Positions 29,805-49,897 of a stretch of 64,000 bases of DNA are shown here, in pieces. The number at the start of each line of letters is the position of its first letter. The first letter of the stretch is position 1. Below the pieces are notes generated by a model, which worked only from the letters and a program-made list of their open reading frames with translations, was not told the origin of the DNA and did no database searches. Source of the DNA: Erythrobacter sp. (GTDB taxonomy: Bacteria > Pseudomonadota > Alphaproteobacteria > Sphingomonadales > Sphingomonadaceae). The translations under genes were made by a program, and so were the position numbers. The stretch lies in contig JAACTC010000011.1 in assembly GCA_009993635.1 (NCBI GenBank), positions 60,089-124,088 on the forward strand. Direction: 5' to 3'.

Positions 29805-29809
29805 TGCGC

Positions 29810-32530: not shown

Positions 32531-32628
32531 AAGTCCCTCGAATGCTGGATCGGCTGGCCGCGCCCGGGCGCGTTCCGACCTGAAATGTTTCCGGCCCCGT
32601 CAAAGGGCCAGACTTCAAGCGCGCGCCA

Positions 32629-33552: not shown

Positions 33553-33674
33553 GCGTTACCATCTCCCCAGCGAGGATGGTTGCCGGCGAAGTAACCTTTT
33601 GCGCCATGCCACTGACGGGATGCGGGTTCTTGCGGGCTCGACAAGCCGAGGGCGAAGCGGCAAGTGTTTGCCGG

Positions 33675-34618
33675 ATGCACGGGGCCGGGGAGGGCCCGCC
33701 TTTGGTCGCAACGATCCGCACGGTCGCCTATCTCGGGCTGGAGGCGCGCAGCGTCGAGGTGCAGTGCCAGCTCGCCGCCGGCCTCCCGCGCTTTTCGGTC
33801 GTCGGCCTTCCGGACAAGGCCGTGGGCGAAAGCCGCGAACGGGTGCAGGCCGCGCTGGCATCCATGGGGCTGGCGCTGCCGCCCAAGCGGATCACGGTGA
33901 ACCTCTCACCCGCCGACCTGCCCAAGGAAGGATCGCATTACGATCTGCCGATCGCGCTCGCGCTGCTGGCCGCGATGGGCGTGGCGGACCGCGAGCAGCT
34001 GGCCGACTTCGTGGCGGTGGGCGAGCTGGCGCTGGACGGGCGCATCGTCGGTTCGCCCGGCGTGCTGCTGGCCGCGCTTCATGCGAGCGAGGCGGAGTGC
34101 GGCCTGATCTGCCCCGCCGCGCAGGGGGCAGAGGCCGCATGGGCCAGCGGCATCCCGGTGATCGCCGCGCCCGACCTCGTCAGCCTGCTGGGCCACCTCA
34201 AGGGCACACAGCAGCTGGGCGCACCCCAGGTCGGCACGGTGGAGGAGGCCCCGCCCGGCCCCGACCTCAGACAGGTCAAGGGGCAGGAGACCGCCAAGCG
34301 CGCGCTGGAGATCGCGGCGGCGGGCGGCCACAACCTGCTGATGAGCGGGCCGCCGGGTGCGGGCAAGAGCCTGCTCGCTGCCTGCCTGCCCGGCATCCTG
34401 CCCCCGCTGACCCCGGAAGAGGCGCTGGAGGTCAGCATGGTGCAGTCGGTCGCCGGGCTGCTGGAGGGCGGGCGGATCAGCCGCGCGCGGCCCTTCCGTG
34501 CGCCGCACCATTCGGCGAGCATGGCGGCGCTGACCGGCGGCGGGCTGAAGGTGCGCCCGGGCGAGGTCTCCCTCGCGCATCTGGGCGTCCTGTTCCTCGA
34601 CGAGCTGCCCGAGTTCCA
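33675..34618 (+). pseudogene. comM: comM/yifB Mg-chelatase-like ATPase, 5' fragment truncated by insertion
   Basis: VATIRTVAYLGLEARSVEVQ..., the Lon-like domain and the AAA+ Walker A motif (LLMSGPPGAGKS) are present. The Walker B motif (GVLFLDELPEF) is followed by the foreign read-through HSILAQMGPI*. Confidence 0.88.
34611..34618. repeat. left copy of the 8-bp target-site duplication GAGTTCCA
   Basis: An identical octamer lies at 49298..49305. Both are in the comM reading frame. Confidence 0.85.
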
Positions 34619-34645
34619 CAGCATTTTGGCGCAAATGGGACCAAT
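34619..34645. repeat. left terminal inverted repeat
   Basis: CAGCATTTTGGCGCAAATGGGACCAAT matches the reverse complement of 49271..49297 at 24 of 27 positions. Confidence 0.85.
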
Positions 34646-34687
34646 CTAGAAGATGATTTTCCGCTAGATTGATGGTCGAATGGGAGC

Positions 34688-35137
34688 ATGCAGAATCCCA
34701 ACACCGTGTCGGCCCTAAAGAGCAAGCGAGGCGAGATCGCCGGTCGCGTGGATGCACTCCAGGATCAGCTTCGCCAAGTCCTGATCGACCTCGATCACGT
34801 CGACTGCACGATCCTTCTTTTCGATCCCGATGCAGAGCTGGACGAAATCAAGACGAAGCCGATGCCTCCGCGCCATCATGCGTTCAAGGGGCAGGTGACC
34901 CGTTCAATCTTGACCATGTTGAGGAAGTCGTCGGCGCCGCTGGATGGTCTGACCATTACGCTGCGTTTGATGGACGAGCGCGAACTGAATCAGTCCGACA
35001 AAAAGCTGGTGAAGACCATCCAGAAGCGTGTGGGAGCAGCCTTGAGGAATATGCGAGATCGCGGGTTGGTGAAGTCGGAGAAGGGCCACAAGGGACTGCT
35101 GATTTGGGATCTGAAGGGCGCAACACCTGATGTCTGA
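34688..35137 (+). CDS. hypothetical protein (N-terminal coiled-coil, possible winged-helix C-terminus)
   Basis: 149-aa ORF with protein-like composition. It is the first gene inside the left end and overlaps the next ORF by 8 nt. Confidence 0.5.
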   Translation: MQNPNTVSALKSKRGEIAGRVDALQDQLRQVLIDLDHVDCTILLFDPDAELDEIKTKPMPPRHHAFKGQVTRSILTMLRKSSAPLDGLTITLRLMDERELNQSDKKLVKTIQKRVGAALRNMRDRGLVKSEKGHKGLLIWDLKGATPDV

Positions 35138-35537
35138 AGAGGTCATTGATCCCTGGAGCGCTCACGTTTCTCGCTTCGACATTCGCGACGCGCAACTCAC
35201 TGGCATGAGGCCAGATGGCGAAGTGTTTGTTCGGCATGACCTAAGCCTAACGGTGCAGGAAGGCCGCTTTGAACACCTGAGCGAGGACGAGCAAGGGCAG
35301 CCGACACCTTCCCGCCTATGCTATGGCTGCACCATCCGAATTTCAGGGGCGGCGTCACCTGATTATTGGAGCGGGACCGATATGCAGATCGTCGTGACGG
35401 GCACGCATCAGAACGGCTGGCGCATCACTATCGTTGGCCAAGGTGCCATCGGTTTCGATGACGCTGGATCGGTCGGGATCGAGTTCGATCAGGCGCCGAC
35501 AATGACCGTCTACGAGAAAGAAGGCGGAGATGGATAG
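35130..35537 (+). CDS. hypothetical protein
   Basis: 135-aa ORF coupled to the previous one. No family was recognised. Confidence 0.45.
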   Translation: MSEEVIDPWSAHVSRFDIRDAQLTGMRPDGEVFVRHDLSLTVQEGRFEHLSEDEQGQPTPSRLCYGCTIRISGAASPDYWSGTDMQIVVTGTHQNGWRITIVGQGAIGFDDAGSVGIEFDQAPTMTVYEKEGGDG

Positions 35538-35685
35538 GTCGGAAAGGGATGGGCCCACCGATGTCGGGAAGGGCCGTGAATCTTGTCTGATGAAGGTTGA
35601 GGCGCTTCTGCTTGGCGCCGTGATGCTTTACGGCATCTGGTCCCTTATCTCTTCATTCTTCTGATGCAACGGCGCGCGTGCTCTA

Positions 35686-36189
35686 TTACCCTTTCACCAA
35701 CGGGATGCGGGCATGGATGGTGCCAGTGATCACCAAGAACATGACGAAAGGGGCGATGCTGATCGCAGTCGCAATGATCGCGAGCTTCACTCGCTGATAT
35801 TTCTCGCACACGATACGCGAGTTGCGCCAAACCTGTCCTAGCAGGTCGTTTCGAAGCGTTGCCTCGCTACAGTCGAGAAATTCCGCGATATAGTTCGATT
35901 CCGTTCGCTTCTGGATTTCCTTGAAGAAGATCAGGCTTTTCTCTCCTCCATTATCGTCGGGAAAGTTGGCACGGAACAGGTGGTAGTAAGACACGAGTAA
36001 GCCGATGAGCATTAGCGATCCAGGGATCGTGACATACCAGAGGAGCAAGTCGCCAGCGGAAACGTTTAGAGCCGCGATTATGAGAATGAGCGTGTTCACG
36101 CCGAAAAGGGCGTTGATCCTCGCTTCGATACGCGGAAAGAACCCCAGGACCCGATCAAGTTGACGCTGAATGATATCGATGTCCTTCAT
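35686..36189 (-). CDS. PycTM / DUF5706-like (SLATT-like) membrane effector
   Basis: 167 aa with two central TM helices and one C-terminal TM helix. SLIFFKEIQ...EATLRNDLLGQVWRNSRIVCEKYQRVKLAI resembles Pycsar TM effectors. The ATGA overlap links it to the upstream gene. Confidence 0.6.
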   Translation of the reverse strand: MKDIDIIQRQLDRVLGFFPRIEARINALFGVNTLILIIAALNVSAGDLLLWYVTIPGSLMLIGLLVSYYHLFRANFPDDNGGEKSLIFFKEIQKRTESNYIAEFLDCSEATLRNDLLGQVWRNSRIVCEKYQRVKLAIIATAISIAPFVMFLVITGTIHARIPLVKG

Positions 36190-36959
36190 CCCTTTTCCTC
36201 CCCATCCATTGCGGCCTGATCTTCATGCGCAGCCAGGGGGCATCCCCGCATCGTTCTGCAGCATTTCTCGCCGCTAGCGATGACGTCCTGCCAATATTGC
36301 TTCAGCGCTTTTCGCCGGAGGTGTTCGGCATAGGCCAGATCAACCAGTATCTGCCGTTTGTCGCAATCGGCGCGGAGCGTCCTGACCATGCGTCCCCGTG
36401 CACGCCTCTTGCATTTTCGCGGACACAGAGCGCGGCCGTTGATGAGCCGCCCCTTCTTGCCGAAGACATGCAGCTTGCGGTCGGTGATCCAGCTCGGCTC
36501 GCCCAGCCGCGCCAGCTCATACTCCTCTAGTATACCGGCTTCGCGGGCGAGGGACAGCGCGCGCTCATGATGCTTCCCTGCGCTGCCGTGATCTAAGGCC
36601 TGTTTTACGGGCCAAATTCGCGTGAGCTCTGCTACGCCTTGGCATACAAGGAACTGTTCGAGCCGGGTCCACCACTGTCGAGCGACAGCCGGCGAGTGCA
36701 CCTCAAGGGTATGGAGGCCCACGCAAAACGTCATATCGCCCTGGATGTGTCGTTCTGCGCATCTAGCAGGAAGGTCTGTTCCGGGGTTCTCCTCACGCAC
36801 CCGTGGATCGCGAGGACCGGCTATGCGCAGATGTAGTCCGTCCTGTGCCCACGGCGTTTTAGGGACGCGAGCACGACCGACGATAAGCTGCCTGTTGGCT
36901 TTTTCTATGGAGAACCAGGCTGGACGGCTGTCAGCCAGGTGCAGAACGGCTGGCTTCAC
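36186..36959 (-). CDS. hypothetical protein, 257 aa, no recognisable domain
   Basis: The ORF exactly fills the space between the cyclase and the TM effector, with a 4-nt overlap at each end (GTGA and ATGA). Confidence 0.5.
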   Translation of the reverse strand: MKPAVLHLADSRPAWFSIEKANRQLIVGRARVPKTPWAQDGLHLRIAGPRDPRVREENPGTDLPARCAERHIQGDMTFCVGLHTLEVHSPAVARQWWTRLEQFLVCQGVAELTRIWPVKQALDHGSAGKHHERALSLAREAGILEEYELARLGEPSWITDRKLHVFGKKGRLINGRALCPRKCKRRARGRMVRTLRADCDKRQILVDLAYAEHLRRKALKQYWQDVIASGEKCCRTMRGCPLAAHEDQAAMDGEEKG

Positions 36960-38548
36960 CTTTTCGCATGCGCCCGCATCGGCGGAGCGGGGTCGACTTC
37001 ATGTGCCATCATTGGTTCACCATCGACACCGGTGTTGATGTAGGGCGAAGACATAACTCCGAGCATGATTTCCGCAGTGTGCGCATTGAGGTTCTGAATG
37101 ATGCGCTCGCTGCCAAAGGCCTCGCGGATGTTTGCGGGCGATTTCTGGCGTGCATTCTCGCCAATCGCTGTTTCTACACCGTTGCACCGCCGCTGCTCCG
37201 ATTCGGAAACGCAGGTCGCCCGGCTGGCAGCTGCGCGAACACTGGCATCGCCGCGTAGACCGAGCCGACAGATGGGTGTGGTGCCGTAATCGATGCCGAT
37301 GGCAAGGCCGAGGTCCTCGATTCCAGGCAGCATTTCGCGACACAGTTCGAACGAGGAGCGAAGACCGGCTGCAGCATCCACCGACTTCTTCATCGTATCC
37401 ATTGCATTCGTCTCTGCCTTGCTTCCTTCCGCGAGCAGGCCATGGACGCAATCCCCGATGTAGCGAACCTTCCTGCCGCCGAAATCGTCGCGCAAAACCG
37501 CGCCCATCTCCGCGCGAATTACGTGCAAATTCGCCACAGCTTCGGCGATTCCGCCGGTCGCGATGGCATTATCGATGTATGCCGTGAAGTTGTCGACGTC
37601 GGCGAAGATCGATGCCAGTTCCATCCGTATCGCATTGCTCGGAGGATGGTCGGCGTAGACCAGGCCCTTGAGCGGCGGCTCCTTGTGATGGAAACGGAAG
37701 ACCGCTTCGCCACTGTCTGACTTGTTGCGCGCTTCGAGACTTTCGAGGACCGCCGCATAAGCTTTTTCGAGCCTGTCGTTGGCGCTCTGCCGAACGCCTG
37801 CTGTGATTATTTCATCGCCAAGATAGCGACGTTCGATCTCTTCGTTGAGGAACACGCTCTTGGCGAGCGGTTCGGCCACTTGCCCGATCGCGGAGGCCGC
37901 TCGTGGGCTCAGATTCAGGCCTTCATCTGTTCCGTCCGCGAGCTTGGCCGCGTGATTCGCTGGGCTGCCGATGAAGAGCGGTTCGCGTTCACCGCGCCGA
38001 CCGGAATCAATGGCGACAGCGGGTCCACTGTCGATGCCGATGCAGACACCCGTCTTGAAATTCGGATGCTTGTCGCCGAGCCTCTCGACCATCTCACGAA
38101 ACGCAGCGGAGAAAGCCACGGCAACCCGAACACGCTCGCCCTCGTTCTCGGCCCCTTCAGGAGCGAGGACCACGGCATGCAGCCTCGAGCCGTGGAAATC
38201 GACCCGCTGCATTTCGAATTCGTCGATGAGTTCGTCACAGCCCTGGTAATGAGCATGGAGAAACTCCAGGGCCCGCTTATGGCTTGCCTCCGTTTCCCGT
38301 CCTGCGTCGGTCAGGACATCGTTGAAGTCGATAAGATTAGCGTAGACGTGAACGGCATCCGTGGTGATTGCCCTATTGCGCGGGATATCGACCAGTGCGG
38401 CACGGACCGATGCGTCGGCGGCCATACCCTTCTGCACCCTAGCCTCAGTGAGGAAAGTGCGAAAGTCTTCGACCTTGATGTCGCCTTCCGGCACGCTGTT
38501 CATGAAATCCCGAATTCTGTTCCGGGCACGATCCTCGTTCCACGCCAT
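36956..38548 (-). CDS. tandem class III nucleotidyl-cyclase-homology protein (degenerate N-terminal CHD plus catalytic-looking C-terminal CHD)
   Basis: CHD1 reads VHVYANLIDFNDV...VDFHGSRLHAVV...IGIDSGPAVAI...IGSPANHAAKLA and lacks the metal-binding Asp residues. CHD2 reads SIFADVDNFTAYI...VRYIGDCVHGLL...IGIDYGTTPI and keeps them. A GGGAGG RBS precedes the ATG. Confidence 0.7.
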   Translation of the reverse strand: MAWNEDRARNRIRDFMNSVPEGDIKVEDFRTFLTEARVQKGMAADASVRAALVDIPRNRAITTDAVHVYANLIDFNDVLTDAGRETEASHKRALEFLHAHYQGCDELIDEFEMQRVDFHGSRLHAVVLAPEGAENEGERVRVAVAFSAAFREMVERLGDKHPNFKTGVCIGIDSGPAVAIDSGRRGEREPLFIGSPANHAAKLADGTDEGLNLSPRAASAIGQVAEPLAKSVFLNEEIERRYLGDEIITAGVRQSANDRLEKAYAAVLESLEARNKSDSGEAVFRFHHKEPPLKGLVYADHPPSNAIRMELASIFADVDNFTAYIDNAIATGGIAEAVANLHVIRAEMGAVLRDDFGGRKVRYIGDCVHGLLAEGSKAETNAMDTMKKSVDAAAGLRSSFELCREMLPGIEDLGLAIGIDYGTTPICRLGLRGDASVRAAASRATCVSESEQRRCNGVETAIGENARQKSPANIREAFGSERIIQNLNAHTAEIMLGVMSSPYINTGVDGEPMMAHEVDPAPPMRAHAKR

Positions 38549-38692
38549 CTTCTGCAGCCTCCCAGTTGATCGCGAATCACCGAATGGCTGCGACCTATTG
38601 ACCGGTGGAACGTTAGCAGAACATTGAGGTTTTATCCAGCCTTACGCGATGTGCGATGCGAGTCCTGTGGATTTCTGACAACCAGCACGTTC

Positions 38693-39616
38693 TCAGCCGT
38701 TGAATGGGCCCAGATCTGCGATGTGGTCGCGCAGCATGTTGCAAGCCGGCGCCATAATCGCCGCGGCATCCTTCCCTGGCTCGTAGCTGTAGGGAATGGT
38801 CGTTATGCCGGTCAGATCACTCGGTAGTCTTACCTTCTCCTCGCGCGGTTCCATCAGGATGGCCCGCTTGCGTCCAAGGCGCCCCATGAAGAGCCCCAGC
38901 TCGAAGATCACGTTATCACGGGGGGCGGGCCATTTTTGGTCGCGAACCAGGGTGACATCGTCTGTGTGGGCGATCGCGATTGCGAAATCAGAATCGTCGA
39001 CCTCGGTCTCCAGGGAATCCAGCGCGTAGCTTGCCACTTTGAAGACATCGTTCGTCCAGAGGCGGACCACGAAATCGTCATGCGCAAAGGCGTTTTCGAT
39101 TATGCGCGCTACCGCCAGGGCTTCCACCGAGCAGATGATGAAGACCCGAACCTTCTCGCGGTGCTGCCCAACCTGCTTGTTTCGCTCAAGCAGGCGACGG
39201 GCCAAGGTCCTGGCTATGACCCGGTAGATGTCGGAATGCCTCGATGCGATGTCGCATATGTCTGCGTAGCTGAGCTTCGCCACCAGAGCGGCCTCTTTCG
39301 CGACGACGTCTGCCGATCGCCGCTGCGAGGGTTCGACTACGACCATCTCGCCGACATGGTCACCCCTGCCGCGTGAAGCGACTTCACGGCCGTTTATGAT
39401 GATACCGAAGTTGCCCGCCATGATCAGATAGAGATCATTGTCGTCTCCACCTTGCCTTATGATCGCTTCGCCCTCGGTAACCCCGAGCATCTCGGCCCTG
39501 TCGGCGAGTTCCTCGGCGAGTTCGCGATTTCCGCTCACAATCTGTTGCTGCAGCATGGCGTCAATCCGATTGGCGCGGCCTGCGTCGCCCTGAAAGCGTT
39601 CGGTCAATCTGCTCAC
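38693..39616 (-). CDS. cyclic-nucleotide-binding domain plus CAP12/Pycsar-type TIR-like effector
   Basis: The N-terminal CAP_ED motif reads GDDNDLYLIMAGNF...GDHVGEMVVVEPSQRRSADVVA. The C-terminal TIR-like motif reads FAIAIAHTDD...RDNVIFELGLFMGRLGRKRAILM...LPSDLTGI. Confidence 0.75.
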   Translation of the reverse strand: MSRLTERFQGDAGRANRIDAMLQQQIVSGNRELAEELADRAEMLGVTEGEAIIRQGGDDNDLYLIMAGNFGIIINGREVASRGRGDHVGEMVVVEPSQRRSADVVAKEAALVAKLSYADICDIASRHSDIYRVIARTLARRLLERNKQVGQHREKVRVFIICSVEALAVARIIENAFAHDDFVVRLWTNDVFKVASYALDSLETEVDDSDFAIAIAHTDDVTLVRDQKWPAPRDNVIFELGLFMGRLGRKRAILMEPREEKVRLPSDLTGITTIPYSYEPGKDAAAIMAPACNMLRDHIADLGPFNG

Positions 39617-40311
39617 GTGAAAGCCCTCCAGTAGGTCGAGGAATAGATTTCCTCATCGTTATGTTGGGACCATTTCCATTTGTGCCAGATGTTCTCGCCT
39701 TGGCTGCCAAGCTTTTGAGGGTCCTTGAGCCCGTCATAGACCCGCTTCGTTATCCAGGTCGCCTTGTCCGCGCTCAGTGATGTCAACTTGGCTGCGAGAT
39801 TGGCTGCGATGCCGATCCACACGAGGTCATTATCGCCCCGCACACCAGTGCGTGCAGCGCGTATTTCGGAAGTATCGATCCCGACGACGTGCCGAATCTC
39901 GGAATCGTGTTTCCAGTGCTTCTTCATCCCGGTCTTGAGGTAGTTCTTGACCGCGTAGTTGATCTCCAAAGCGCAACTGACCGCCTGGTTGCGCTGGCTG
40001 CTGGATATAAAGATTCCCATCACCCGGTCGCCGTCGTATGAGACGATCTTCCCGCCGTGCTGCCGGATCAGCCGCGATGCCGTGTAGAGGAACGTCTTGT
40101 AGACCTCGCCGGCGAATTGCCATTTCTTCGTCGCCACGAGATCCGTGGACTGGTCGAGATCCGCATATAGGATGGTGGCCTTTTCGAACCGAACCGCGTC
40201 GTTGGCTAGTTTCAGATCGCTGGCATTCGGAACCACCTGTCCGTCGCGCACGCTCCACTTGGAGCCGAAGGTGTCGGCCGCGTTCTTCTTGATATCGTCC
40301 GCAACGCTCAC
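39613..40311 (-). CDS. Pycsar-type small class III nucleotidyl cyclase (PycC-like)
   Basis: 232 aa with a single CHD: ATILYADLDQSTDL...YDGDRVMGIF...VGIDTSEIRAARTG...IGIAANLAAKL. It overlaps the downstream effector by 4 nt. Confidence 0.75.
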   Translation of the reverse strand: MSVADDIKKNAADTFGSKWSVRDGQVVPNASDLKLANDAVRFEKATILYADLDQSTDLVATKKWQFAGEVYKTFLYTASRLIRQHGGKIVSYDGDRVMGIFISSSQRNQAVSCALEINYAVKNYLKTGMKKHWKHDSEIRHVVGIDTSEIRAARTGVRGDNDLVWIGIAANLAAKLTSLSADKATWITKRVYDGLKDPQKLGSQGENIWHKWKWSQHNDEEIYSSTYWRAFT

Positions 40312-40335
40312 GCTGTTCCAATCCTTTGTCGAATT

Positions 40336-41532
40336 TTACACCTTCGGCGTTCGCTCGACGATGCCATCATCGTCGATGTCGTAACGATACAGGTGGAGCT
40401 TGCGGGTCGAGATTAGCCTAATGGCCTGCTCCACCGACGAGGGTGAGACTAGGAACCACTCCCGCGGGTCGACCTTGCGTCCGAAGCGGTCAGGTAAATG
40501 CACATCGACGCAGGCCGCTGAGAAGAACCGGTGTAGCAGCCCCTCTATTTTCTTGGGTGGGACGCCCCGAGTGTCATATTCATCGACGAGCTCCGCTTTC
40601 GACATGAGAAAGGTCGGATCGTTGTCGGCAGCGCTGAGCCTGCCTGCAGCTGATCCGGTGGTGGAACCGACCTTTACCATGTGGCTTTTCAGATCAGCCA
40701 GTGCTGGGTCTTCGGAGAGGGTTCTGGCGACATAGATGCGCCCGGTCACCGGAGCGGCCTGACCGTCGAACAGCGGGCCGGCTTGTGGTGACAGAACGCG
40801 GCGGCTGTTGTCGGCGCGGTAGAGTGCCTTACCGAAGGACCGCAGCAGATGACCGCTCTCGGTTCCGTTGTCATAGATGATGCGCAGCCTCGCGTCCTTC
40901 TGGTCACCCTTGGTTCGCGTCATCCAGGCGCCCACTTCGGCAATGTAAGCAAGCTGACCGTCGAGGATGAACATATCTCCGGCAGCGATCTGGTATGTGG
41001 AGCTGGTAGGCACGGTAGAGCGGACACCGGAGGCAATGTCCGCAATGGCCTCGTCGAAAATAGGAGCGAATTTTTCGAATTCGGCGCACGGCGTCCTTTC
41101 GGCGATCATATCCGCCTCGGCCTTCGGGACAGGAGCTGGCGTGGCCCGGAATTCGAAGATGTGATCATCGGGCGTGGCCAGAAGATCGTCATCGTCCGCG
41201 ATGAGTTCATCTAGGCTGGCCGGCACTTGATCCATTCGCCCTGCGCTTTGTTGTAGTAGCCCGTATTGATCTAGATCCCGAAGGGCGCTGACCTTATTCT
41301 CATCTTCTCGGAAGGCATTGAGCCGAACGCCTAGCCGCATTTCCTCCGGTGATCGGGACGCGGAGTCTGGAGGACGCCCATGGCGTTCTCGGAACGACAC
41401 GATCTCGAGGAACAGCCGCGCCTGATCGTCCGCCTGGGTCGCGGCCTTCTTGACCTCGGGAACGAACAGGTCATCCTTCGCGGCGATGAGCTCGTCGAGC
41501 TTCTCGTAGAACAGGTCAGCCGAGCGAGACAT
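40336..41532 (-). CDS. T5orf172 / MUG113 (GIY-YIG superfamily) domain protein with helicase-associated-like N-terminal motif
   Basis: The C-terminal part reads GRIYVARTL...MVKVGSTTGSAAGRL...IEGLLHRFF...REWFLVSPSSVEQAI. Its start overlaps the helicase stop by 1 nt. Confidence 0.7.
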   Translation of the reverse strand: MSRSADLFYEKLDELIAAKDDLFVPEVKKAATQADDQARLFLEIVSFRERHGRPPDSASRSPEEMRLGVRLNAFREDENKVSALRDLDQYGLLQQSAGRMDQVPASLDELIADDDDLLATPDDHIFEFRATPAPVPKAEADMIAERTPCAEFEKFAPIFDEAIADIASGVRSTVPTSSTYQIAAGDMFILDGQLAYIAEVGAWMTRTKGDQKDARLRIIYDNGTESGHLLRSFGKALYRADNSRRVLSPQAGPLFDGQAAPVTGRIYVARTLSEDPALADLKSHMVKVGSTTGSAAGRLSAADNDPTFLMSKAELVDEYDTRGVPPKKIEGLLHRFFSAACVDVHLPDRFGRKVDPREWFLVSPSSVEQAIRLISTRKLHLYRYDIDDDGIVERTPKV

Positions 41533-43589
41533 CAGGCTGCTTCATCCCGTTCCTTTTCCTTCTGACGCCGGATCGCAGCCGCCCTAATCCATGCCAGAGA
41601 CTCAGCCATCCGCTTCTCGATCGGATCGGGCGAATTGATGTTCGGCTCCTTTCCGTGCTGTTCCTTGAACGCACGGATGCGCGGCACTTGTGCCAGAGCT
41701 TCGGCTTCGCTGATTGTGATCTTGGTCTCGGCGAGCGTCTGGTGGATACGTCGCAAGACAGATTCGCCGAGCGACTTCGACAGTATTTCGTAGGATTGCT
41801 GGAACGGGTTCACCTGGTCGATCAGATCGATGCTGAGTTCGGGCATCGTGATGAACTTTGAAGTCAGCTTCAGAAGCTGCGCATGCGCCTTCTGGCCATC
41901 GGTCGCATCATCGTCCTCCGACGAGGCCTGGCCTGTCTCGCGGTTCGCCTGTGTGAGCTGGGCCAGAACCGCACGTCGTGCAACGACATTCTGGCGGATT
42001 GCTTCGATGTCGTCCTCGTTATCCGCGATGTCGGGATAGCGCTTGGCGATGAGGTCAGGGATCAGATGTTGATTGATCGTCTCGGCCGGGAACTCGTCGG
42101 GGATGAGGCTGGCGCGCATGACCTGATTGTCCTGCAGGACCGCGGCCATGAGATCGGTCATATCCGTCTGAATGATTTCCTCGGCACGCTTGCTGGTCGG
42201 CTCCTTCAAGCCCGTCACTTCGATGGTGGGCTCCGGCTCGAGCAGGTCGATCCGGGTAGAGGGCCGCGCGACGCCATCGAAACGATCGTCCGATGCCTTG
42301 GTCTTGAAGTTGAAATTGGGAGCGAGCACCTGCTCCATGAGTAGCGAGCAGGCGATCGCCTTGAGCATATCATTGACCGCTGTGCGCACGACCTCGTCGG
42401 CGGTATCTGGTTCCGCGATCAGATTGGTGAATTGTGCATGGCTCTTGCCCGGGGCGTCGCGTGTCGCTCGCCCAATGATCTGGACGACCTCGGTGAGCGA
42501 ACCACGATAGCCGATGGTCAGCGCATGCTCGCACCAGATCCAGTCGAAGCCCTCTTTGGCCATGCCCAGCGCGATGACAATGTCGAGGTCATCCTTTTCC
42601 TCCACGCTCCGGAGGCCGTTAAGCACCTTCTGCTGTGTGTCGGGGGTTACGAGATCGGCGATCTTGAGGATGCGACCATCGGACGTCCGAAGATGTTGGA
42701 ACCCGGTGACGGGATCGATCTCCACGACATCCCCGAGCACATCGAGGATGCTGTTCATCTCCTTGATCTTGTCGCCGAGCGCCGCTTGCGAGTTGACGTT
42801 GGGTATGTGGATGATCGTTTTCTTCGTCGGGTCCAGGACCTCGCCGATCGCGCTTAGATAGCTCCCGTGGTAGAAGTGGTAGCCAATCCCGAGCGTCTTG
42901 AGATGCTCGTAACCGGACAGCTGCTCGTAGTAGGTGTAGGTAACCCGGGTGAACTTCTCCTCGTCCTCGGGCCGGAGGACGGGAACTTGGTCGCCACGGA
43001 AGTAGGACCCGGTCATCGCCACGAGGTGGGCCGACCCTTCGCTCATCACTGAGCGGACGAGCTCACCGAGGCGATTGTCGGCGTCGGCCGAGACATGGTG
43101 GAACTCGTCCACCGCGAGCAGGCAACCGTGGAAGGCAGCGATTCCCGCATCGCTTTCCATGATCCGATCGAAGGCATGACGCAGGGTCGAATGCGTGCAG
43201 ACGATGATCTCGTCGTCGCTTTCCATGAAGCGGAGGAATGCGTTGATCTTGCCGCCTTCGCCCCCGAGCATATCGCACAGGTTGTTGCGTGGTGACACTG
43301 TCCAGTCATGGTCGAAGCCGTGCTGAGTGAGGCTGGTCGACCGGAACGAGTTGCCGATCGATTTCTCCGGCACCGCCACGATGACCTTACGGATGCCCTG
43401 ATTGTAGAGCTTGTCGAGCCCGAGGAACATGAGCGCGCGGCTCTTGCCCGAAGCCGGCGGCGACTTGATCAGAAGATACTGGGAGTTTCGAGCATCGTAG
43501 GCGCGGGCCTGCATTGCGCGCATGCCCATATCGTTCGTCGACTTGCTGGCGCCGGTGGCGCCGTATTCGACAGTGATGAAATCGGGCAT
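41532..43589 (-). CDS. SF2 DExH-box helicase (ResIII-like)
   Basis: Motif I is SPPASGKS, motif II is AVDEFHH, motif III is AMTGS and motif VI is QIIGRATR. A C-terminal extension of about 200 aa follows. Confidence 0.85.
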   Translation of the reverse strand: MPDFITVEYGATGASKSTNDMGMRAMQARAYDARNSQYLLIKSPPASGKSRALMFLGLDKLYNQGIRKVIVAVPEKSIGNSFRSTSLTQHGFDHDWTVSPRNNLCDMLGGEGGKINAFLRFMESDDEIIVCTHSTLRHAFDRIMESDAGIAAFHGCLLAVDEFHHVSADADNRLGELVRSVMSEGSAHLVAMTGSYFRGDQVPVLRPEDEEKFTRVTYTYYEQLSGYEHLKTLGIGYHFYHGSYLSAIGEVLDPTKKTIIHIPNVNSQAALGDKIKEMNSILDVLGDVVEIDPVTGFQHLRTSDGRILKIADLVTPDTQQKVLNGLRSVEEKDDLDIVIALGMAKEGFDWIWCEHALTIGYRGSLTEVVQIIGRATRDAPGKSHAQFTNLIAEPDTADEVVRTAVNDMLKAIACSLLMEQVLAPNFNFKTKASDDRFDGVARPSTRIDLLEPEPTIEVTGLKEPTSKRAEEIIQTDMTDLMAAVLQDNQVMRASLIPDEFPAETINQHLIPDLIAKRYPDIADNEDDIEAIRQNVVARRAVLAQLTQANRETGQASSEDDDATDGQKAHAQLLKLTSKFITMPELSIDLIDQVNPFQQSYEILSKSLGESVLRRIHQTLAETKITISEAEALAQVPRIRAFKEQHGKEPNINSPDPIEKRMAESLAWIRAAAIRRQKEKERDEAA

Positions 43590-43602
43590 GCTACTCTCCG
43601 GT

Positions 43603-46335
43603 TCAGGCGGCTTTTGCCGCTTTCTTGGTCATACGGGCGTAAAGCTTGAACAGGTGCTCGAGGCGCTCAGTATCGTCCTTAAATTGACGTCCGATATAGA
43701 TTGTCTCGAGATAGTCATCGAGGTTCCGGTGGGCTTGAAGAAGGTCGTCCGGCATTGTCTTAGGATTATATAGCCAACCCAAGGTTTTGCCGTCGGCTAC
43801 GTAAGGCTCTCTCGTCCGGACGATGCCAAGTGCATGTTCCTCAAGGTTCACTTTCTGCTCGTGGGAGAGTGATGGCATCGGAAAGTTGTTGTAGACCAGT
43901 GTGTTCGAATACCGATAATCGCTCTTCAGTCTTCCACCGACTGTAGCGAGCCAGACCGCATGAATTCTTGTCGACAGGACTGAAAGAAGCCACGTTGGCG
44001 GATCGTAAATTGCCAAAGCCGCATCATTGATAATGACTGTCTCCGAAAGAAAGCCGCAAGGCAGGTAAAGCCTATTTTCAGAAGAGACACGAGGGACGAT
44101 TATCGCAGGCTTTCCGTAATCTTGGATCTGAATGAAGCGATGCGCAGTGTCAGCCTTAGCCCGCGTGGTGGGAGCTTTAGCCTGCAGACGAAAAGCACGA
44201 CTCGCAGCTACTCGCTCTGCGATTAAAGGAATTGATAAAGCTTCGTCGAAGTCAGCATCTTCAATCCACAGACAGTATCTTTCCTTGCTCTGGAGGTAAT
44301 CCTTGGAGCCATAATACCGTTTTATAAACTTGGAGGAATCTGGATTCCTATCTCGCATTTCACGAGCCTCGTCGGGTGTCAGTATCAGACCCCCTCCATC
44401 AGATGCCATATTGCCTTTTTCCATCCGAGGCAGGCCGCTAAGATTTAAGGATGAACGACCCACCCAGACGGTGTCCATCTCAATAAGATACGGACCGATG
44501 TTTCTTACTTGTCTGGAGCTATCGTGAGATATGACGCGCCTATTGATATTCGATCTTGGGGAGATCGCAACGATTACACATATTACAGCGGCATTCTTAG
44601 CCGCATTGTTTCGCCATTTGAACGCTTCATGAGCGAATAGAACCTGGCTACCATGGTCAAAGACTGCCGGCCATAACAAGGCGACCTGTTCACCTTGCGC
44701 GATGCTGTTGGTTGCGACGAACGCTGACTCTGCGCCAGACCTTTCGCCATATTCTGCTGCTTTTAGGAACCATCCAGCTACATAGTCTAAATTTTTATAG
44801 TTGACCTTGTAGGGGGTAAAAACCGCTCGCAGATCGCTTTTTTGCTCGGGCGTCTGCATGCTGCTGCCAAGATAGGGTGGATTTCCAACGACGTAAATTT
44901 CAGCCTCTTTCTCTCGAGGACACACCTCTGACCAGTCGACGCGCAGAGCATTACCAACAACGATGCTGCCTGCATCCGTAAGCGGCAGTGCCGGCGTCGG
45001 CGCCGAGCAGATCTCGTCCAGCTTGCGGTTCATCTGATATTGCGAAATCCACAGCGACAGCTTGGCGGTCTCGCAGGCGAAATCAACCGGGTCGATGCCA
45101 TAGAAGTTGCTGATCTTGATGCCGGTCTGGTAATCGGCCAGTTGCAACTGACCCTTGCGTTTTACGTCACGCATGCGCCGGAAAGCCTCGGTCTCGATCA
45201 GCCGCAGCTCCCGATAGGCGATGATCAGGAAATTGCCCGATCCGCATGCGGGGTCGAACACGCGGATGCGCGAAATGCGCTCGACCAGCTTCTCGAGCGC
45301 CTTCACGTTGTCGCCGGCGGCAGTGAGCTGTTCACGAAGGGAGCCAAGGAACAACGGCTCCAGAACCTTCATGATGTTGGGCACGGAGGTGTAGTGCATG
45401 CCGAAGTCGGCGCGCATATCGGTCTGCACGATGGCCTGGATCATCGAGCCGAAGATATCGGCATGGATCTGGTCCCAGTGCAGCTCTGCCGCCTCGAGCA
45501 GCAGTCGCCGGGCTTTCCGGTTGAATTCGGGTATCTCGGTGTGATCGCGGAAAAGCCCGCCATTCACATAGGGGAAGTCGGCTGCGATACGCTGCGAGCG
45601 GACTCCTTGATCGGCCCGGGCGTCCTTGTCGGCCAAGTCGAGGGCAAGGAACACATCCTCGATGACGCGCTTGGTGTCCGATCCATCGACCTTCATCGCT
45701 TCGCGACGGAGGGTGTTGAGGAACAGCTTGTCGGTGAAGATGCCTGTGTCTTCTGCGAACATGCAGAACAGTAGCCGTGTCATGAACAGGTTGAGGTCGT
45801 GGACCTTGTCTGCGCCCCAGGTCGGATTGGCATCACGGATGGCGTCGTGGAACTTGGCCATGTGCCTCGCGGCCTTGACGTCGGCGGCAGTCTCAGGGGC
45901 AGGCTTGAACCGCTCCACGCCGAACATCGGAAGCAGGAAGTCGTAGTTGACCGGGAGCTCGGCCAGCTTATCGAAGCTGGGGGTCTCGTCGTTCTTGAGA
46001 TCGACGGCGAGAAATTCGTCACCGTCCGTGCTCATCACGAACCGAGGCGCATTCTTCGCAGAGCGCCCCTTCTTACCGACCAGCGAAGCCTTCAACGAAG
46101 TGACTGTATCCTGGACTTCGCCCTTCTGCGCCGCGCGGTAGAGGAGCTTTTTGGGCCAAAGAATGTCGGCGTCCACGAGCCCTTCGGGATGCTTCATCCT
46201 CAGCTTGTTGACCTCGTTCCTGGAAGCCTCGTAGGCCTCCATCAGCCTGAAGGGAAACTCGTGCAGCGAGCAGTTTTCCGCCGACACGTCGGCAACCAGC
46301 AGATCCAGCTGCTTCTCGATTTCGATTGTGTTCAT
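43603..46335 (-). CDS. MmeI/PglX-like gamma-class N6-adenine DNA methyltransferase (911 aa; N-terminal nuclease motif apparently degenerate)
   Basis: Motif I is VFDPACGSGNFLI and motif IV is VVGNPPYLG. The N-terminal region is MmeI-like and there is a large C-terminal TRD-like region. The start at MNTIEIE (46335) overlaps the upstream stop (ATGA). The track start at 46455 is an extension. Confidence 0.85.
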   Translation of the reverse strand: MNTIEIEKQLDLLVADVSAENCSLHEFPFRLMEAYEASRNEVNKLRMKHPEGLVDADILWPKKLLYRAAQKGEVQDTVTSLKASLVGKKGRSAKNAPRFVMSTDGDEFLAVDLKNDETPSFDKLAELPVNYDFLLPMFGVERFKPAPETAADVKAARHMAKFHDAIRDANPTWGADKVHDLNLFMTRLLFCMFAEDTGIFTDKLFLNTLRREAMKVDGSDTKRVIEDVFLALDLADKDARADQGVRSQRIAADFPYVNGGLFRDHTEIPEFNRKARRLLLEAAELHWDQIHADIFGSMIQAIVQTDMRADFGMHYTSVPNIMKVLEPLFLGSLREQLTAAGDNVKALEKLVERISRIRVFDPACGSGNFLIIAYRELRLIETEAFRRMRDVKRKGQLQLADYQTGIKISNFYGIDPVDFACETAKLSLWISQYQMNRKLDEICSAPTPALPLTDAGSIVVGNALRVDWSEVCPREKEAEIYVVGNPPYLGSSMQTPEQKSDLRAVFTPYKVNYKNLDYVAGWFLKAAEYGERSGAESAFVATNSIAQGEQVALLWPAVFDHGSQVLFAHEAFKWRNNAAKNAAVICVIVAISPRSNINRRVISHDSSRQVRNIGPYLIEMDTVWVGRSSLNLSGLPRMEKGNMASDGGGLILTPDEAREMRDRNPDSSKFIKRYYGSKDYLQSKERYCLWIEDADFDEALSIPLIAERVAASRAFRLQAKAPTTRAKADTAHRFIQIQDYGKPAIIVPRVSSENRLYLPCGFLSETVIINDAALAIYDPPTWLLSVLSTRIHAVWLATVGGRLKSDYRYSNTLVYNNFPMPSLSHEQKVNLEEHALGIVRTREPYVADGKTLGWLYNPKTMPDDLLQAHRNLDDYLETIYIGRQFKDDTERLEHLFKLYARMTKKAAKAA

Positions 46336-46652
46336 GATTCGCGCGCGCGGGTCCGTTTGGCCAAGGTCTGAGCGCCGTGAGCGTCGGCAGCTATTTGCGA
46401 TACTTCGTCTGCCTTCGGGATTGGCAGCAGGTCGGTGCCAATGGCGACCATACACTGCGCAAAGAAAGAGGCGGTGAACCGCCCACGGGCCACCTTGTTA
46501 CGCAGATTGGCTACGTTGTCGCTCACCCCGATGGCAGCGAGCTTATCGACCAGAACTTCGTAAGAGACCCCCTTACGCATCATTTCAGCGCGCAGGAGGT
46601 TCTTCACCAATTGGTCCCACGCGGCTTCGTCTATCTGTTCGATTTCCTTCAT
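46332..46652 (-). CDS. small DUF6471-like HTH protein
   Basis: MKEIEQIDEAAWDQLVKNLLRAEMMRKGVSYEVLVDKLAAIGVSDNVANLRNKVARGRFTASFFAQCMVAIG. It is translationally coupled to the methyltransferase. Confidence 0.6.
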   Translation of the reverse strand: MKEIEQIDEAAWDQLVKNLLRAEMMRKGVSYEVLVDKLAAIGVSDNVANLRNKVARGRFTASFFAQCMVAIGTDLLPIPKADEVSQIAADAHGAQTLAKRTRARES

Positions 46653-46719
46653 ATGGCCGTTATAGGACGCACAAGTTCCAAACGGCAAGCGTCGGCAGTT
46701 ATGTGCACCACCACAGACG

Positions 46720-48039
46720 ATGATATTGCTGGTTGACAGGCCACGTGGCACCATCGTATATGGTGGTGTAGGCAACGTCAAACGGTGGTCCTTGGGTCAA
46801 CACTTTCTCCTCTCAGCGCGCTACCGCGATCTCCCGATCGCAAAGATCGCGCGCCTGAGCGAGGCAGAGGCCTACGATATCTTCCTGCATGCTCGATGGA
46901 TGGATGGGGTGCCGAAGTGTCCCGAATGCGATTCAGGGGCATGGACGCTGGGCGATCACTCCTGTCCCGGCGACAAGCGCCAGTTCCGCTGCAAGAGCAA
47001 TCCGTGCAGGAAGAAATTCTCTGTCACGAGCGGAACGCTGCTTCACAGCCGGAAGAAGGACTTCGTGACGATCCTGGTTGCCATCAGGTTGTTCATTTCG
47101 GGCGCGAAGGGGATCTCGTCGATTCAGCTGGGCGCTGATGGCGACATGGCTATCAAGACCGCATGGGTCCTCGCTCACAAGATGCGCGAGGCGCAGATCA
47201 AGAACCAACTGGGCCGGCAGCTTTCGGGCATAGTAGAGATCGATGGCTCTACCTATGGTGGCTACTATCACCAGGTGAACGAGAAGTCGGAGCGCATCGA
47301 CCGGCGTAAACTCGGGAACATCACCGGCAAGGAGATGTCGGTGGTCGTGGCGCGCGAACGTAGCACGAAGGATCGGGTTGGTCTGAGTGTTTGCACCGTC
47401 GTGCCGCACGAGGCAGATTCACGTCCCTTCATCGTGGACAGCGTCGACCGCTTCGCCAAGGTCTATGCGGACGATGGCAGCCATTGGGATGCGCTGGCGG
47501 CGGCTTTCGACATAGATCAGGTCAACCATTCCCAGCGCTATTATGACAAGGGCATCTGCACGAACCAGGCGGAGAGCTACTTTTCGCGCGTCGATCGGAT
47601 GGAGATGGGAACGCACCATCATATCGCCGGGGATTACCTGTGGGGCTACGCCTGCGATGCGGTGTGGCGCGAGGACAAGCGCAGGGACACCCAGAGGGAG
47701 CGGTTCCAGTCGATCCTGATCGGTCTGCTCGGCAATCCCGTTTCCCGCACGATGAAGGGATACTGGCAACGCCATCTGGAAGTGGCTTCGGAAGAGCCCA
47801 ACCTCGAAGCAGAGCTGCTGGTCGAGGATGAGAACCTTGCCGATGATGAGGCCGAAGGCATGAGCCAGAAGGACATCATCGCGTTGTTCGGCCGGGACGC
47901 TCTGCCTGCTCAGCGCAGGCAGCCGGGTGGAAGGCAATGGAAGGCGCGGAAGCCGTTCGTCCCGAAGAAGCCGGATATCAGGCCCAAACCGTGGTCGGAG
48001 TTCCAGCAGCCGCGAGGCCTGCCTTCGTTCATTCCGTAG
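46720..48039 (+). CDS. IS1595-family DDE transposase (with C-terminal extension)
   Basis: The N-terminal zinc ribbon reads RWMDGVPKCPECDS...FRCKSNPCRKKFSVTSGT. It is followed by an ISXO2-like DDE domain (IVEIDGSTYGG...VYADDGSHWD...NQAESYFSR). Confidence 0.8.
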   Translation: MILLVDRPRGTIVYGGVGNVKRWSLGQHFLLSARYRDLPIAKIARLSEAEAYDIFLHARWMDGVPKCPECDSGAWTLGDHSCPGDKRQFRCKSNPCRKKFSVTSGTLLHSRKKDFVTILVAIRLFISGAKGISSIQLGADGDMAIKTAWVLAHKMREAQIKNQLGRQLSGIVEIDGSTYGGYYHQVNEKSERIDRRKLGNITGKEMSVVVARERSTKDRVGLSVCTVVPHEADSRPFIVDSVDRFAKVYADDGSHWDALAAAFDIDQVNHSQRYYDKGICTNQAESYFSRVDRMEMGTHHHIAGDYLWGYACDAVWREDKRRDTQRERFQSILIGLLGNPVSRTMKGYWQRHLEVASEEPNLEAELLVEDENLADDEAEGMSQKDIIALFGRDALPAQRRQPGGRQWKARKPFVPKKPDIRPKPWSEFQQPRGLPSFIP

Positions 48040-48110
48040 CCTTGTGCTGAATGCCGGCCGAGTGTCAGCATTAACGCGATGATGACCATGCGGATGCCAT
48101 CTGTCGCCGC

Positions 48111-49040
48111 ATGAACTTGATTCGACTATTTCTGGCGGCGTTTCTTCTGGTTGCCTGCGTGTCCTCACCCGCACACGCTGTAACTACGCAGTCTGACGCC
48201 GCTCCTTCAGAGAATGCCGTAAGTAGCAGAAGCCCAGACGTAGGTGACGGAGCCCAGCCAGCTTCCAAGGCCGACGACGGCGAGGACGACAAAAACCCAA
48301 GCCGCCGGACCGTCAACGGCCAAAGATTTATCGATACAGACCTTGAATGGCCGATACAGAGGCCATGCCGCGAGGGTGAGGAAGATCGCTACAGTGATCT
48401 GTGTGCTCAGTGGCACGCCGCTAAAGGCTCCCAAAAATCGGCGTTCTACGCGTTTTGGGGTGTATTGATCGGAATTGCTAGCACTGTGATCTTGGTTGTC
48501 ACGCTCATATTCGTGAAGCGTGGCACCGATGCTGCGGTGAATGCTGTCGCCGTTGCTACCGATGCCCAGAAACTTCAGCGCGCCGAATTCCAGCAACGAA
48601 TGCGCCCTCGATGTGCGGTAATCGGAATCAGCCTGGTCGAAGACTGGGCGGCGAGCGTGAAAGCTGGCAGTCCTATCCCTATGCGGATACAGCTCGAGAA
48701 TCTCGGCAGCACCACTGGTCGCCATCTCTCTCTGCTTCTCGATGGCATTGCGTTTCTCGCCCTTGATGGCACCGAAGTCTGGAGCGAAAAGCGCATAATT
48801 CCCCTCGCTCCTTTGCGTGCTGGACAACAACGTGAGGAGCTCATGCTGATTGAGCATACCGCGGCTGGATCCGAGATTCATGGGGTCGAGGTAAGGGGTC
48901 GCATTGGATCCATTTCCGACAAGGTCGGCGAGGAGCCGGGGCTTTCCTTCATTGAGTATTTCGTATGGCGTGAGAACTCGCTCCATCGTGGCAGCCCTGA
49001 CTTGGTCGAGCGGCCACATGAGAAAGACCCCGAGCATTGA
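48111..49040 (+). CDS. hypothetical lipoprotein/membrane protein (strand ambiguous, see findings)
   Basis: The lipobox signal is MNLIRLFLAAFLLVAC, with one internal TM helix. A 20-codon sample shows purine-rich position 1 and higher GC3 than the antisense frame. No RBS was seen. Confidence 0.4.
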   Translation: MNLIRLFLAAFLLVACVSSPAHAVTTQSDAAPSENAVSSRSPDVGDGAQPASKADDGEDDKNPSRRTVNGQRFIDTDLEWPIQRPCREGEEDRYSDLCAQWHAAKGSQKSAFYAFWGVLIGIASTVILVVTLIFVKRGTDAAVNAVAVATDAQKLQRAEFQQRMRPRCAVIGISLVEDWAASVKAGSPIPMRIQLENLGSTTGRHLSLLLDGIAFLALDGTEVWSEKRIIPLAPLRAGQQREELMLIEHTAAGSEIHGVEVRGRIGSISDKVGEEPGLSFIEYFVWRENSLHRGSPDLVERPHEKDPEH

Positions 49041-49211
49041 TACGATCACGACCGTGATCTGAAGCTTCCGAGCTCTTGGTGTAGAAATTTCCTTTTCCAT
49101 ATTCCGTCTCCTTCGAAGACGGCAACACGGGTCGGGCTGTAGGCTCGCGATTATCGCGCGCCGTCAAAAATCGCGTAAGTTTCGCTAAGGGGCGATGGCG
49201 GATGTCCGAAA

Positions 49212-49245
49212 TTTTCTAGGGGTAGGCTCGCCTACCCCTAGAAAA
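49212..49245. repeat. perfect 16-bp-stem palindrome near the right end of the element
   Basis: TTTTCTAGGGGTAGGC-TC-GCCTACCCCTAGAAAA. Confidence 0.9.
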
Positions 49246-49270
49246 CCCCTCCTCATGAGAAAGAGGTCCT

Positions 49271-49297
49271 ATTGGTCCCCTCTGCGCTAAAATGCTG
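49271..49297. repeat. right terminal inverted repeat
   Basis: The reverse complement is CAGCATTTTAGCGCAGAGGGGACCAAT. Confidence 0.85.
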
Positions 49298-49305
49298 GAG
49301 TTCCA
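49298..49305. repeat. right copy of the 8-bp target-site duplication GAGTTCCA
   Basis: Identical to 34611..34618. Confidence 0.85.
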
Positions 49306-49897
49306 GCGCCCGGTGCTCGATTCGCTGCGCCAGCCGCTGGAGACGGGCAAGGTCGACGTCGCGCGCGCCAACGCGCATGTCAGCTTCCCCGCGCGCGTCC
49401 AGCTGATCGCGGCGATGAACCCGTGCCGCTGCGGCCACCTGGGCGATCCCTCGCTCGCCTGCAGCCGCGCGCCCAAATGCGCTGCCGATTACCAGAGCAA
49501 GGTCAGCGGGCCGATGCTCGACCGGATCGACCTGCATGTCGAGGTCGAGCCTGTCAGCGCAGCCGACCTCGCGCTGCCGCCGCCCGCAGAAGGCAGCGCG
49601 CAGGTCGCCGCGCGGGTCGCCGCGGCGCGCGAAGTGCAGGGCGCACGCGGGGCAGAGGCAGGCGTGCGCACCAATGCCGAGCTGGACGGCGAGATGCTGG
49701 AACGCTTCGCCACGCCCGACGAGGCGGGGCGCGCGCTGCTGATGCAGGCGGCGGAGCGAATGCGGCTTTCGGCGCGCAGCTACGTCCGGATGCTGCGGGT
49801 CGCGCGCACGATCGCGGACCTCGCCGGCGCGGAGCAGATCGGCCGCGTCCACGTGGCCGAGGCGCTGAGCTACCGGCGGCAGGCACCGCGGGCCTGA
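49298..49897 (+). pseudogene. comM: comM/yifB Mg-chelatase-like ATPase, 3' fragment
   Basis: EFQRPVLDSLRQPLETGKVDVARANAHVSFPARVQLIAAMNPCRCG... continues the AAA+ domain in frame with the 5' fragment once the element is removed. Confidence 0.88.

Follow-up and report, generated by a model that had tools for sequence, protein, structure and literature searches.

Protein-directed target choice in bacteria is best known from the multi-protein Tn7 family, whereas IS110 and others use other means. The IS1595 family of insertion sequences (IS), with its passenger-carrying “transporter IS”, was reportedly set out by Siguier, Gagnevin and Chandler in 2009. This family is described as producing 8-bp target duplications (PMC8101967). 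The Tn7-like Tn6022 with its TnsF selector and the tyrosine-recombinase transposon Tsy both target the Walker B-coding region of comM (Faure et al. 2023, PMC10293859), and a 2025 review reports that comM is disrupted by “various MGEs” (mobile genetic elements) and raises a role for it in mobile-element removal (PMC12378983). We analyzed a stretch of 64,000 nucleotides from Erythrobacter sp. (GCA_009993635.1, contig JAACTC010000011.1, positions 60,089 to 124,088), hereafter the window, in which comM is split by a large IS1595-family transposon carrying predicted defense genes. With it, a third, unrelated machinery is seen to converge on the part of comM that encodes Walker B, the other two being Tn6022 and Tsy. 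Comparison with its relatives suggests that a small winged-helix protein, not the transposase, chooses the insertion site. We consider this explanation as a whole, namely an IS1595 transposon, a fixed comM position, a small-protein selector and a cargo bay, to be the probable one.

The insertion in comM and its family assignment

The anatomy of the insertion was established at its junctions (Table 1). The element spans 34619-49297 (14,679 bp). As a sequence-only reading of this DNA had described, the octamer GAGTTCCA stands at both junctions, and directly inside them lie 27-bp inverted repeats, CAGCATTTTGGCGCAAATGGGACCAAT and its partner, which agree at 24 of 27 positions. When the window was searched with a degenerate form of the terminal repeat, these were the only two sites, and 100 shuffles gave none. 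The split of comM and the lower G+C content of the interior, both claimed before, were also borne out: the frame ...GVLFLDELPEF continues as HSILAQMGPI and a stop codon into the left repeat, ComM picks up at EFQRPVLDS, and the G+C content of the element is 0.576, below the 0.658 and 0.654 of its two flanks (about 0.655). Deletion of 34619-49305 had been said to restore an open reading frame (ORF) of 511 codons. The frame is indeed open, and its length needs a minor correction: because intact homologues have 502 amino acids (aa), the true comM start is probably 9 codons inside the upstream ATG chosen in that reading.

The sequence-only reading had proposed to align the rebuilt protein with intact ComM and to look for an empty site, and both gave clear results. 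The rebuilt ComM aligns end to end, covering positions 3-499 of 499 of the YifB/ComM model TIGR00368 and showing 95% identity over 100% of its length to the intact 502-aa ComM of Alteriqipengyuania; the ComM of Citromicrobium aligns likewise. The empty site is seen in textbook form at locus L043 (Alteriqipengyuania sp., GCA_041242855.1), which is colinear with 29593-34618 plus 49298-49898 of the window and contains the octamer once. In related genomes the interruption comes together with the repeats. A penicillin-amidase gene lies directly downstream of comM in L043 (5510-8042), and the corresponding window sequence (49898-50033) is without that gene.

The element belongs to the IS1595 family, as indicated by its DDE_Tnp_IS1595 domain, its zinc ribbon, its 8-bp duplication and the inverted repeats around one transposase gene. 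The catalytic domain matches 153/153 positions of PF12762 (E 1.6e-29), NCBIfam NF033547 scores 111 bits against a cutoff of 75, and the N-terminal zinc ribbon PF12760, a domain that every IS1595 group but IS1016 has, exceeds the gathering score (E 8.3e-7). The acidic residues D175, D251 and E285 are invariant across 28 transposase homologues, as are the zinc-ribbon residues C67, C70, C91 and C96 across the homologues. The protein also has a C-terminal extension of roughly 100 aa. This single transposase ORF is bounded by the terminal inverted repeats, and duplications of 8 bp flank each relative for which both ends were read. The proposed mode of insertion, by DDE transposition and not by an integrase, thus agrees with the encoded transposase, and the element contains no integrase gene; a Pfam profile search found no recombinase among its ORFs. 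The proposal that an element type unrelated to Tn7 targets comM also stands, since the element has no TnsABC genes; Pfam, PADLOC and NCBIfam profile searches of all its ORFs gave no TnsA/TnsB/TnsC, TnsF or TniQ domain. The element is a new, unusually large and complete member of the IS1595 family, with the ISNha5-type passenger carriers as its closest resemblance, and it is probably active.

Target sites of the lineage and the small winged-helix protein

Relatives were gathered via the transposase, via the small ORF beside the left end and via short transposases of 48% identity; loci are designated by L numbers. In 15 distinct Sphingomonadales loci, an element splits comM at residue 302-304 (…DELP|EF), the hosts being Qipengyuania, Allosphingosinicella, Sphingomonas, Stakelama, Aurantiacibacter, Erythrobacter and Croceicoccus in addition to metagenomes. 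The target consensus at this site is CTCGACGAACTGCCC-GAATTCCA-GCGCGCGGTGCTCGA, and the duplicated octamer GA(A/G)TT(C/T)(C/G)(A/C) corresponds to codons E-F-(Q/A), two codons past the Walker B D-E. The duplication is identical on both sides in 7/7 loci with both ends read, the comM halves remain open frames in all loci, and element size ranges from 3.3 kb (L032, with no obvious cargo) to the 14.7 kb of the window. Transposase identity between the window and L001, L005 and L006 is 94-96%. Of these three, L001 and L006 have their insertion in comM, and their host ComM proteins are just 84% identical to that of the window, indicating horizontal spread of the element followed by insertion at the same place. 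Metagenome contigs match the window ends at 100% and 99.8%, a sign of recent activity. Beyond what the sequence-only reading had claimed, these comparisons identify comM as a dedicated, codon-precise target of the whole lineage and not a lucky hit, a preference that is strong and not absolute; they also put the insertion in the Walker B region that Tn6022 and Tsy target as well, and suggest that a small accessory protein selects the site.

Sister lineages use other sites. At a second comM site, 60 codons upstream, the duplication is GAGGC(G/A)CT (GAGGCGCT or GAGGCACT), covering codons E-A-L near residue 238; insertions here were found in three loci and in both orientations (lineage loci: L045, 3682-3689 / 7597-7604; L046; L048-L051). 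The ends and transposase of these elements are nearly as in the Walker B elements, and their small winged-helix protein is 33% identical. A third group inserts at the 3' end of tRNA-Arg, where the duplication begins at the CA of CCA (L014, 8563-8570; L017, 12369-12376), in two genomes with unrelated far-side flanks, opposite orientations, and TCT and CCT anticodons. A fourth uses a fixed codon of an ABC-2 (KpsM-like) permease gene in two genomes (L013 and L015). The transposases of the tRNA-Arg and ABC-2 elements are 34-42% identical to that of the window, and all of these elements have 8-bp duplications. Four specificities are thus observed: comM Walker B, comM E-A-L, the tRNA-Arg 3' end and the ABC-2 permease gene.

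The conserved core of the lineage consists of three genes encoding the transposase, a divergently transcribed DUF6471 protein and a protein of ~145 aa. DUF6471 is present in all Sphingomonadales relatives with a sequenced transposase side, as well as in the outgroup L013. The ORF for the ~145-aa protein comes immediately after the transposase gene in the small outgroup elements, whereas in the comM elements it lies at the end opposite the transposase, with the cargo in between. The window version, orf2, has no Pfam, NCBIfam or PHROG match. Its AlphaFold2 model (predicted local distance difference test, pLDDT, 81) shows a 40-residue helix followed by a winged helix-turn-helix, and the leading Foldseek matches are all DNA-binding winged helix-turn-helix proteins. 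The protein is 63-94% identical to its homologues among those listed, 66-93% in confirmed Walker B-site elements and ~30% in other-site elements. The family comprises ~2,358 representative clusters (E <=0.001; clusters at 50% identity).

Pairwise comparison separates this protein from the other components. L032 and L045 have nearly the same ends, transposases 78% identical and DUF6471 proteins 76% identical; their small proteins share 33% and their sites differ (Walker B vs E-A-L), 60 codons apart. Conversely, the window and L032 have different ends, transposases 48% and DUF6471 proteins 53% identical; their small proteins share 67% and the site is the same (Walker B). The same pattern is seen outside comM: L013 and L014 have similar ends and transposases 82% identical, with small proteins at 42% and different sites (ABC-2 vs tRNA-Arg), whereas L014 and L017, again with similar ends and transposases 84% identical, have small proteins at 89% and the same tRNA-Arg site. 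These identities indicate that the insertion point tracks the small protein and nothing else that we measured. The C-terminal extension of the transposase was considered as a selector and ruled out, as 319-aa transposases without the extension use the same Walker B site.

By the best-supported mechanism, a single DDE transposase would bind the 27-bp terminal repeats and join the ends to target DNA cut with an 8-bp stagger, giving rise to the GAGTTCCA duplication; both steps are those expected from the family. A dimeric winged-helix protein encoded by orf2 would recognize the conserved target DNA and recruit the transposase, and the DUF6471 protein probably acts as a regulator. Because the two ends are near-identical, orientation would be left free. 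The stretch from the candidate selector gene to the DUF6471/transposase module forms a cargo bay. Splitting comM should impair recombination of incoming DNA, and may shield the element from replacement. The more general proposal, that this IS1595 lineage has a Tn7-like lifestyle in which one DDE transposase works with an exchangeable ~145-aa winged-helix protein dictating the exact 8-bp insertion point, has in our judgment slightly better than even chances.

Limits on specificity and rival explanations

Several observations weigh against a strictly targeted element with a protein selector. The preference for the site has exceptions. Scanning metagenomes for the end pattern yielded 12 loci, including 1 false positive and 2 without usable flank, and gave 1 comM vs 8 non-comM junctions, the non-comM flanks being low in G+C; these many non-comM ends argue against strict specificity. 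The off-target rate differs between the two kinds of sampling, the relatives and the metagenome scan. Contig L021 (1-1610) is 100% identical to 34619-35114 of the window, including the left end and the small-protein gene. Outside the element, this contig continues into the 3' part of a methyltransferase gene (DNA methyltransferase, 48% G+C) that the insertion interrupts, indicating that the same element is also present at a non-comM site. The case for the selector role is purely correlative, and since the gene adjoins one end, its co-variation with the site is confounded with linked non-coding DNA. The same-target pair L013/L015 is weak, with small proteins just 46% identical, and the Foldseek match of orf2 is borderline (best E-value ~1e-3). 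The AlphaFold model of the transposase (pLDDT 48) is unusable and silent on the catalytic fold and the extension. Opposite orientations are not proof of independent events, as recombination between the terminal repeats could flip an element in situ.

The false positive of the scan, at L028 (5554-5577) in an unrelated genome, was rejected as an element end; it is dxr coding sequence in which the same bases encode SILAQMGP, the peptide that also follows the truncated ComM frame in the window, and we take it as a chance match. The plasmid database contained distant relatives only (small protein <=34%, transposase <=43%), and these distant matches give no evidence of comM-type elements on known plasmids.

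The sequence-only reading had suggested looking for the same ends around other insertions, and Pacificimonas flava provides such a case. A relative at 92-94% identity with BREX cargo lies outside comM, in an AAA_11/AAA_12/DUF3320 helicase gene (L005, 12380-12414; L018, 9926-9960), with ends identical at 27/27 positions and a fresh, different duplication, GATCTTGT, which indicates real transposition. This event bears on the explanation that homologous recombination in the conserved comM flanks spread one or a few ancient random insertions, with no target recognition needed. The comM resistance islands of Acinetobacter are known to spread by recombination, and the comM flanks beside the junction are 86-89% identical between hosts, without a sharp boundary of high similarity; as comM itself is highly conserved at the junction, this profile does not separate the two modes of spread, and some copies may have moved by homologous recombination. 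As the general explanation, however, we regard recombination as very improbable, since one and the same octamer is occupied by very divergent elements (transposase 48%, different ends), each lineage includes insertions in both orientations, another precise position in comM is used by a sister lineage whose ends are nearly the same, the tRNA-Arg class takes the same position beside unrelated flanks, and the comM halves are intact in all loci.

Target recognition could instead reside in the transposase itself, through its N-terminal zinc ribbon or helix-turn-helix, or in the DUF6471 protein, with the small winged-helix protein merely a regulator or cofactor. Many IS transposases carry their own target preferences, the N-terminal helices and ribbon are the only part of the transposase modeled with moderate confidence, and DUF6471 is conserved across the whole lineage. 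Against this stand transposases 78-83% identical that use different sites, as do DUF6471 proteins at 76% in the one pair compared (L032 and L045), and transposases only 48% identical that use the same site; we therefore think this explanation unlikely. Less likely still, and the least probable that we weighed, is a nucleic-acid guide, in which structured subterminal RNA or DNA, inherited with the small-protein gene, pairs with the target in the manner of the IS110 bridge RNA. The conserved and strongly structured right end of ~105 bp with its 26-bp palindrome would suit such a guide, and the confounding with linked end sequence noted above applies here. Matches of >=10 nucleotides between target and element are, however, only sporadic, with none at consistent positions; 8-mers common to the targets and 2 x 200 bp of subterminal DNA occur at the shuffled expectation; the element contains no Rfam family; and the ends of Walker B and E-A-L elements are near-identical, with conserved motifs common to their subterminal DNA. 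A TGAATTaCAG match in L032 and a GGAATTC near the ribosome-binding site in L033-L035 were tried as guides and rejected, being absent from other members. We favor the small winged-helix protein as the selector.

Gene content, element ends and comparison with known systems

Table 1. Features of the element and of its target gene in the window, with strand and basis of assignment
Feature	Position	Strand	Basis
comM 5' part, ComM residues 1-304, ending ...LFLDELPEF	33708-34618	+	tblastn, translation; colinear with intact comM of L043
Left target duplication copy GAGTTCCA	34611-34618		single copy in L043 empty site
Left inverted repeat (IRL) CAGCATTTTGGCGCAAATGGGACCAAT	34619-34645	+	repeat comparison; conserved in relatives
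orf2 (“orfL149”), 149 aa (~145-aa family), candidate selector	34688-35137	+	model with long N-terminal helix and winged helix-turn-helix
135-aa ORF	35130-35537	+	no family match
PycTM, 2TM Pycsar effector	35686-36189	-	Pfam PF18967; PADLOC PDLC00692, E 5.5e-71
E2-like prokaryotic protein with Cys-rich domain	36186-36959	-	Pfam PF20298, E 2.5e-22; PF20272, E 1.1e-18
PycC, 530-aa Pycsar cyclase	36956-38548	-	PADLOC PycC, E 8.7e-186; Pfam Guanylate_cyc
PycTIR effector, cNMP-binding and TIR-like domains	38693-39616	-	Pfam PF10137, PF00027; PADLOC, E 1.9e-133
PycC, 232-aa Pycsar cyclase	39613-40311	-	PADLOC PycC, E 6.1e-100
T5orf172/MUG113-domain protein, 398 aa	40336-41532	-	Pfam PF10544, PF13455
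Superfamily-2 helicase, 685 aa	41532-43589	-	Pfam ResIII, DEAD, Helicase_C (weak); phrog_16 DNA helicase
MmeI-family type IIG restriction-modification enzyme	43603-46455	-	five MmeI Pfam domains; PADLOC REase_MTase_IIG, E 3.1e-274
DUF6471 small protein, divergent from transposase gene	46332-46781	-	Pfam PF20075, E 1.3e-26
IS1595-family DDE transposase; homologues start at 46792, 415 aa	46720-48039	+	PF12760, PF12762, NF033547
309-aa ORF, lipoprotein-like signal	48111-49040	+	no family match
Conserved non-coding right end	49090-49270		alignment
Right inverted repeat (IRR), inverted partner of CAGCATTTTGGCGCAAATGGGACCAAT	49271-49297	-	repeat comparison
Right target duplication copy GAGTTCCA	49298-49305		junction sequence
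comM 3' part, residues 302-500	49298-49897	+	tblastn, translation

The cargo genes (the MmeI-type gene, the helicase/T5orf172 pair and both Pycsar operons) are all on the minus strand. All five MmeI domains (N, helicase-spacer, MTase, TRD and C) score above threshold in one polypeptide, whose true start is probably near residue 41. The helicase and T5orf172/MUG113 genes follow the MmeI-type gene with short or overlapping junctions and gave no convincing PADLOC system match; they may be an uncharacterized defense module or an accessory of the restriction enzyme. Two Pycsar systems are predicted, each a cyclase with an effector: the 530-aa PycC with PycTM and the 232-aa PycC with PycTIR. An E2-like gene lies between the 530-aa cyclase and PycTM genes with a 4-bp overlap with each, and these overlaps suggest a three-gene Pycsar variant with a ubiquitin-conjugation-like component. 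Cargo varies by relative and includes BREX, a methyltransferase with a PLD-SNF2 helicase, Fic, MmeI-like enzymes and HicA. For the 135-aa ORF, no homologue was found in related loci and no match in family profile searches (Pfam, PADLOC, NCBIfam, PHROG). A 297-aa ORF on the opposite strand (48207-49100) overlaps the 309-aa ORF, of which the plus-strand frame is the better conserved across loci. Outside the element lies a terC RNA (Rfam RF03067, 49.9 bits; 53017-53078, minus strand).

The last ~105 bp of the right end are conserved even in contig L029, the interior of which is unrelated, and the right end has a folding z-score of -2.9. The ~105-bp block contains a near-perfect palindrome of 26 bp, CTAGGGGTAGGC-TC-GCCTACCCCTAG (49216-49241), located about 30 bp inward from the right repeat; it may bind a protein or act as a terminator. 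When the element ends were scanned for promoters and terminators, nothing that bears on the model rose above chance. Read outward, the repeat tips (…ATGCTG| and …ATGCCG|; window 49292-49297 and 34619-34624) contain an ATG in frame with the downstream comM sequence; in the window, the ATG at 49292 in the right repeat is in frame with the comM 3' part. The in-frame ATG recurs in either orientation and at both comM sites (MLEFQ…, MPEALEV…), including the L032 and L045 junctions, and the outgroup ends CGGTATT and CGGAATT are without it. It may allow a C-terminal ComM fragment to be translated, or be a coincidence.

Among described elements, those of the ISNha5/ISNwi1 type of IS1595 “transporter IS” are similar in having one DDE transposase with a zinc ribbon, inverted repeats, 8-bp duplications, alphaproteobacterial hosts and additional internal genes. 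The 14.7-kb element is about twice the size range of the ISNha5 group. The ends of this group are taken to be CGGnnTT; CGGCATT, CGGTATT and CGGAATT in our relatives fit this pattern, and the window element begins with CAGCATT. An ISNha5 passenger is cited as a transcription regulator (PMC11891212); it may correspond to the small protein or to DUF6471. In the literature covered, with ISfinder and the 2009 founding paper outside its scope, there was no report of site-specific insertion, of a target-tracking regulator or selector, or of defense cargo in the IS1595 family; likewise no paper linked IS1595 with comM, and no description of the lineage was found. New in the behavior of the lineage is targeting with the precision of a codon, apparently conferred by a small DNA-binding protein that can be exchanged.

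If this is true, the lineage would be simpler than any other known system in which a protein directs DDE transposition to a specific site, and given ~2,400 small-protein clusters, many more specificities may exist. A one-transposase IS with a small, swappable DNA-binding protein would widen the known modes of target choice and be compact enough to dissect and engineer. The elements are also an unrecognized vehicle for predicted antiphage systems in Sphingomonadales (Pycsar, MmeI-type restriction-modification, BREX, methyltransferase/PLD-SNF2 helicase, Fic).

Like Tn7 with TnsD and attTn7, the element uses conserved coding sequence as a safe, widely shared landing pad; Tn7, however, inserts downstream of glmS and leaves the gene undamaged, whereas the element splits comM. 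A second, less specific mode resembling that of Tn7 TnsE may exist, the off-target sites being in low-GC, probably mobile DNA, and we have no evidence here of a distinct second selector. With Tsy, the element shares the comM Walker B region, the cargo and the lack of a Tn7 machinery. In contrast, Tsy uses tyrosine recombinases (YRec and an active TnsF) and a circular intermediate and has no inverted repeats, whereas the element has repeats and a duplication and no recombinase in its core. Tn6022/AbaR resembles it in comM specificity, the Walker B anchor, cargo, and a DNA-binding selector (here a candidate) separate from the transposase. Tn6022, however, combines heteromeric TnsA/B/C machinery with an inactivated tyrosine-recombinase selector of ~600 aa, while the element has one IS1595 transposase and a candidate selector of ~145 aa. 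Tn6022 has a fixed orientation and 5-bp duplications, unlike the element, with its 8-bp duplication and both orientations at the Walker B site (7 forward, 8 reverse). The comM site is universally conserved, and loss of comM may protect mobile elements from removal by recombination. The convergence of Tn6022, Tsy and this element on the same few codons strengthens the view of a favored site, to which the small-protein system would be a third independent route.

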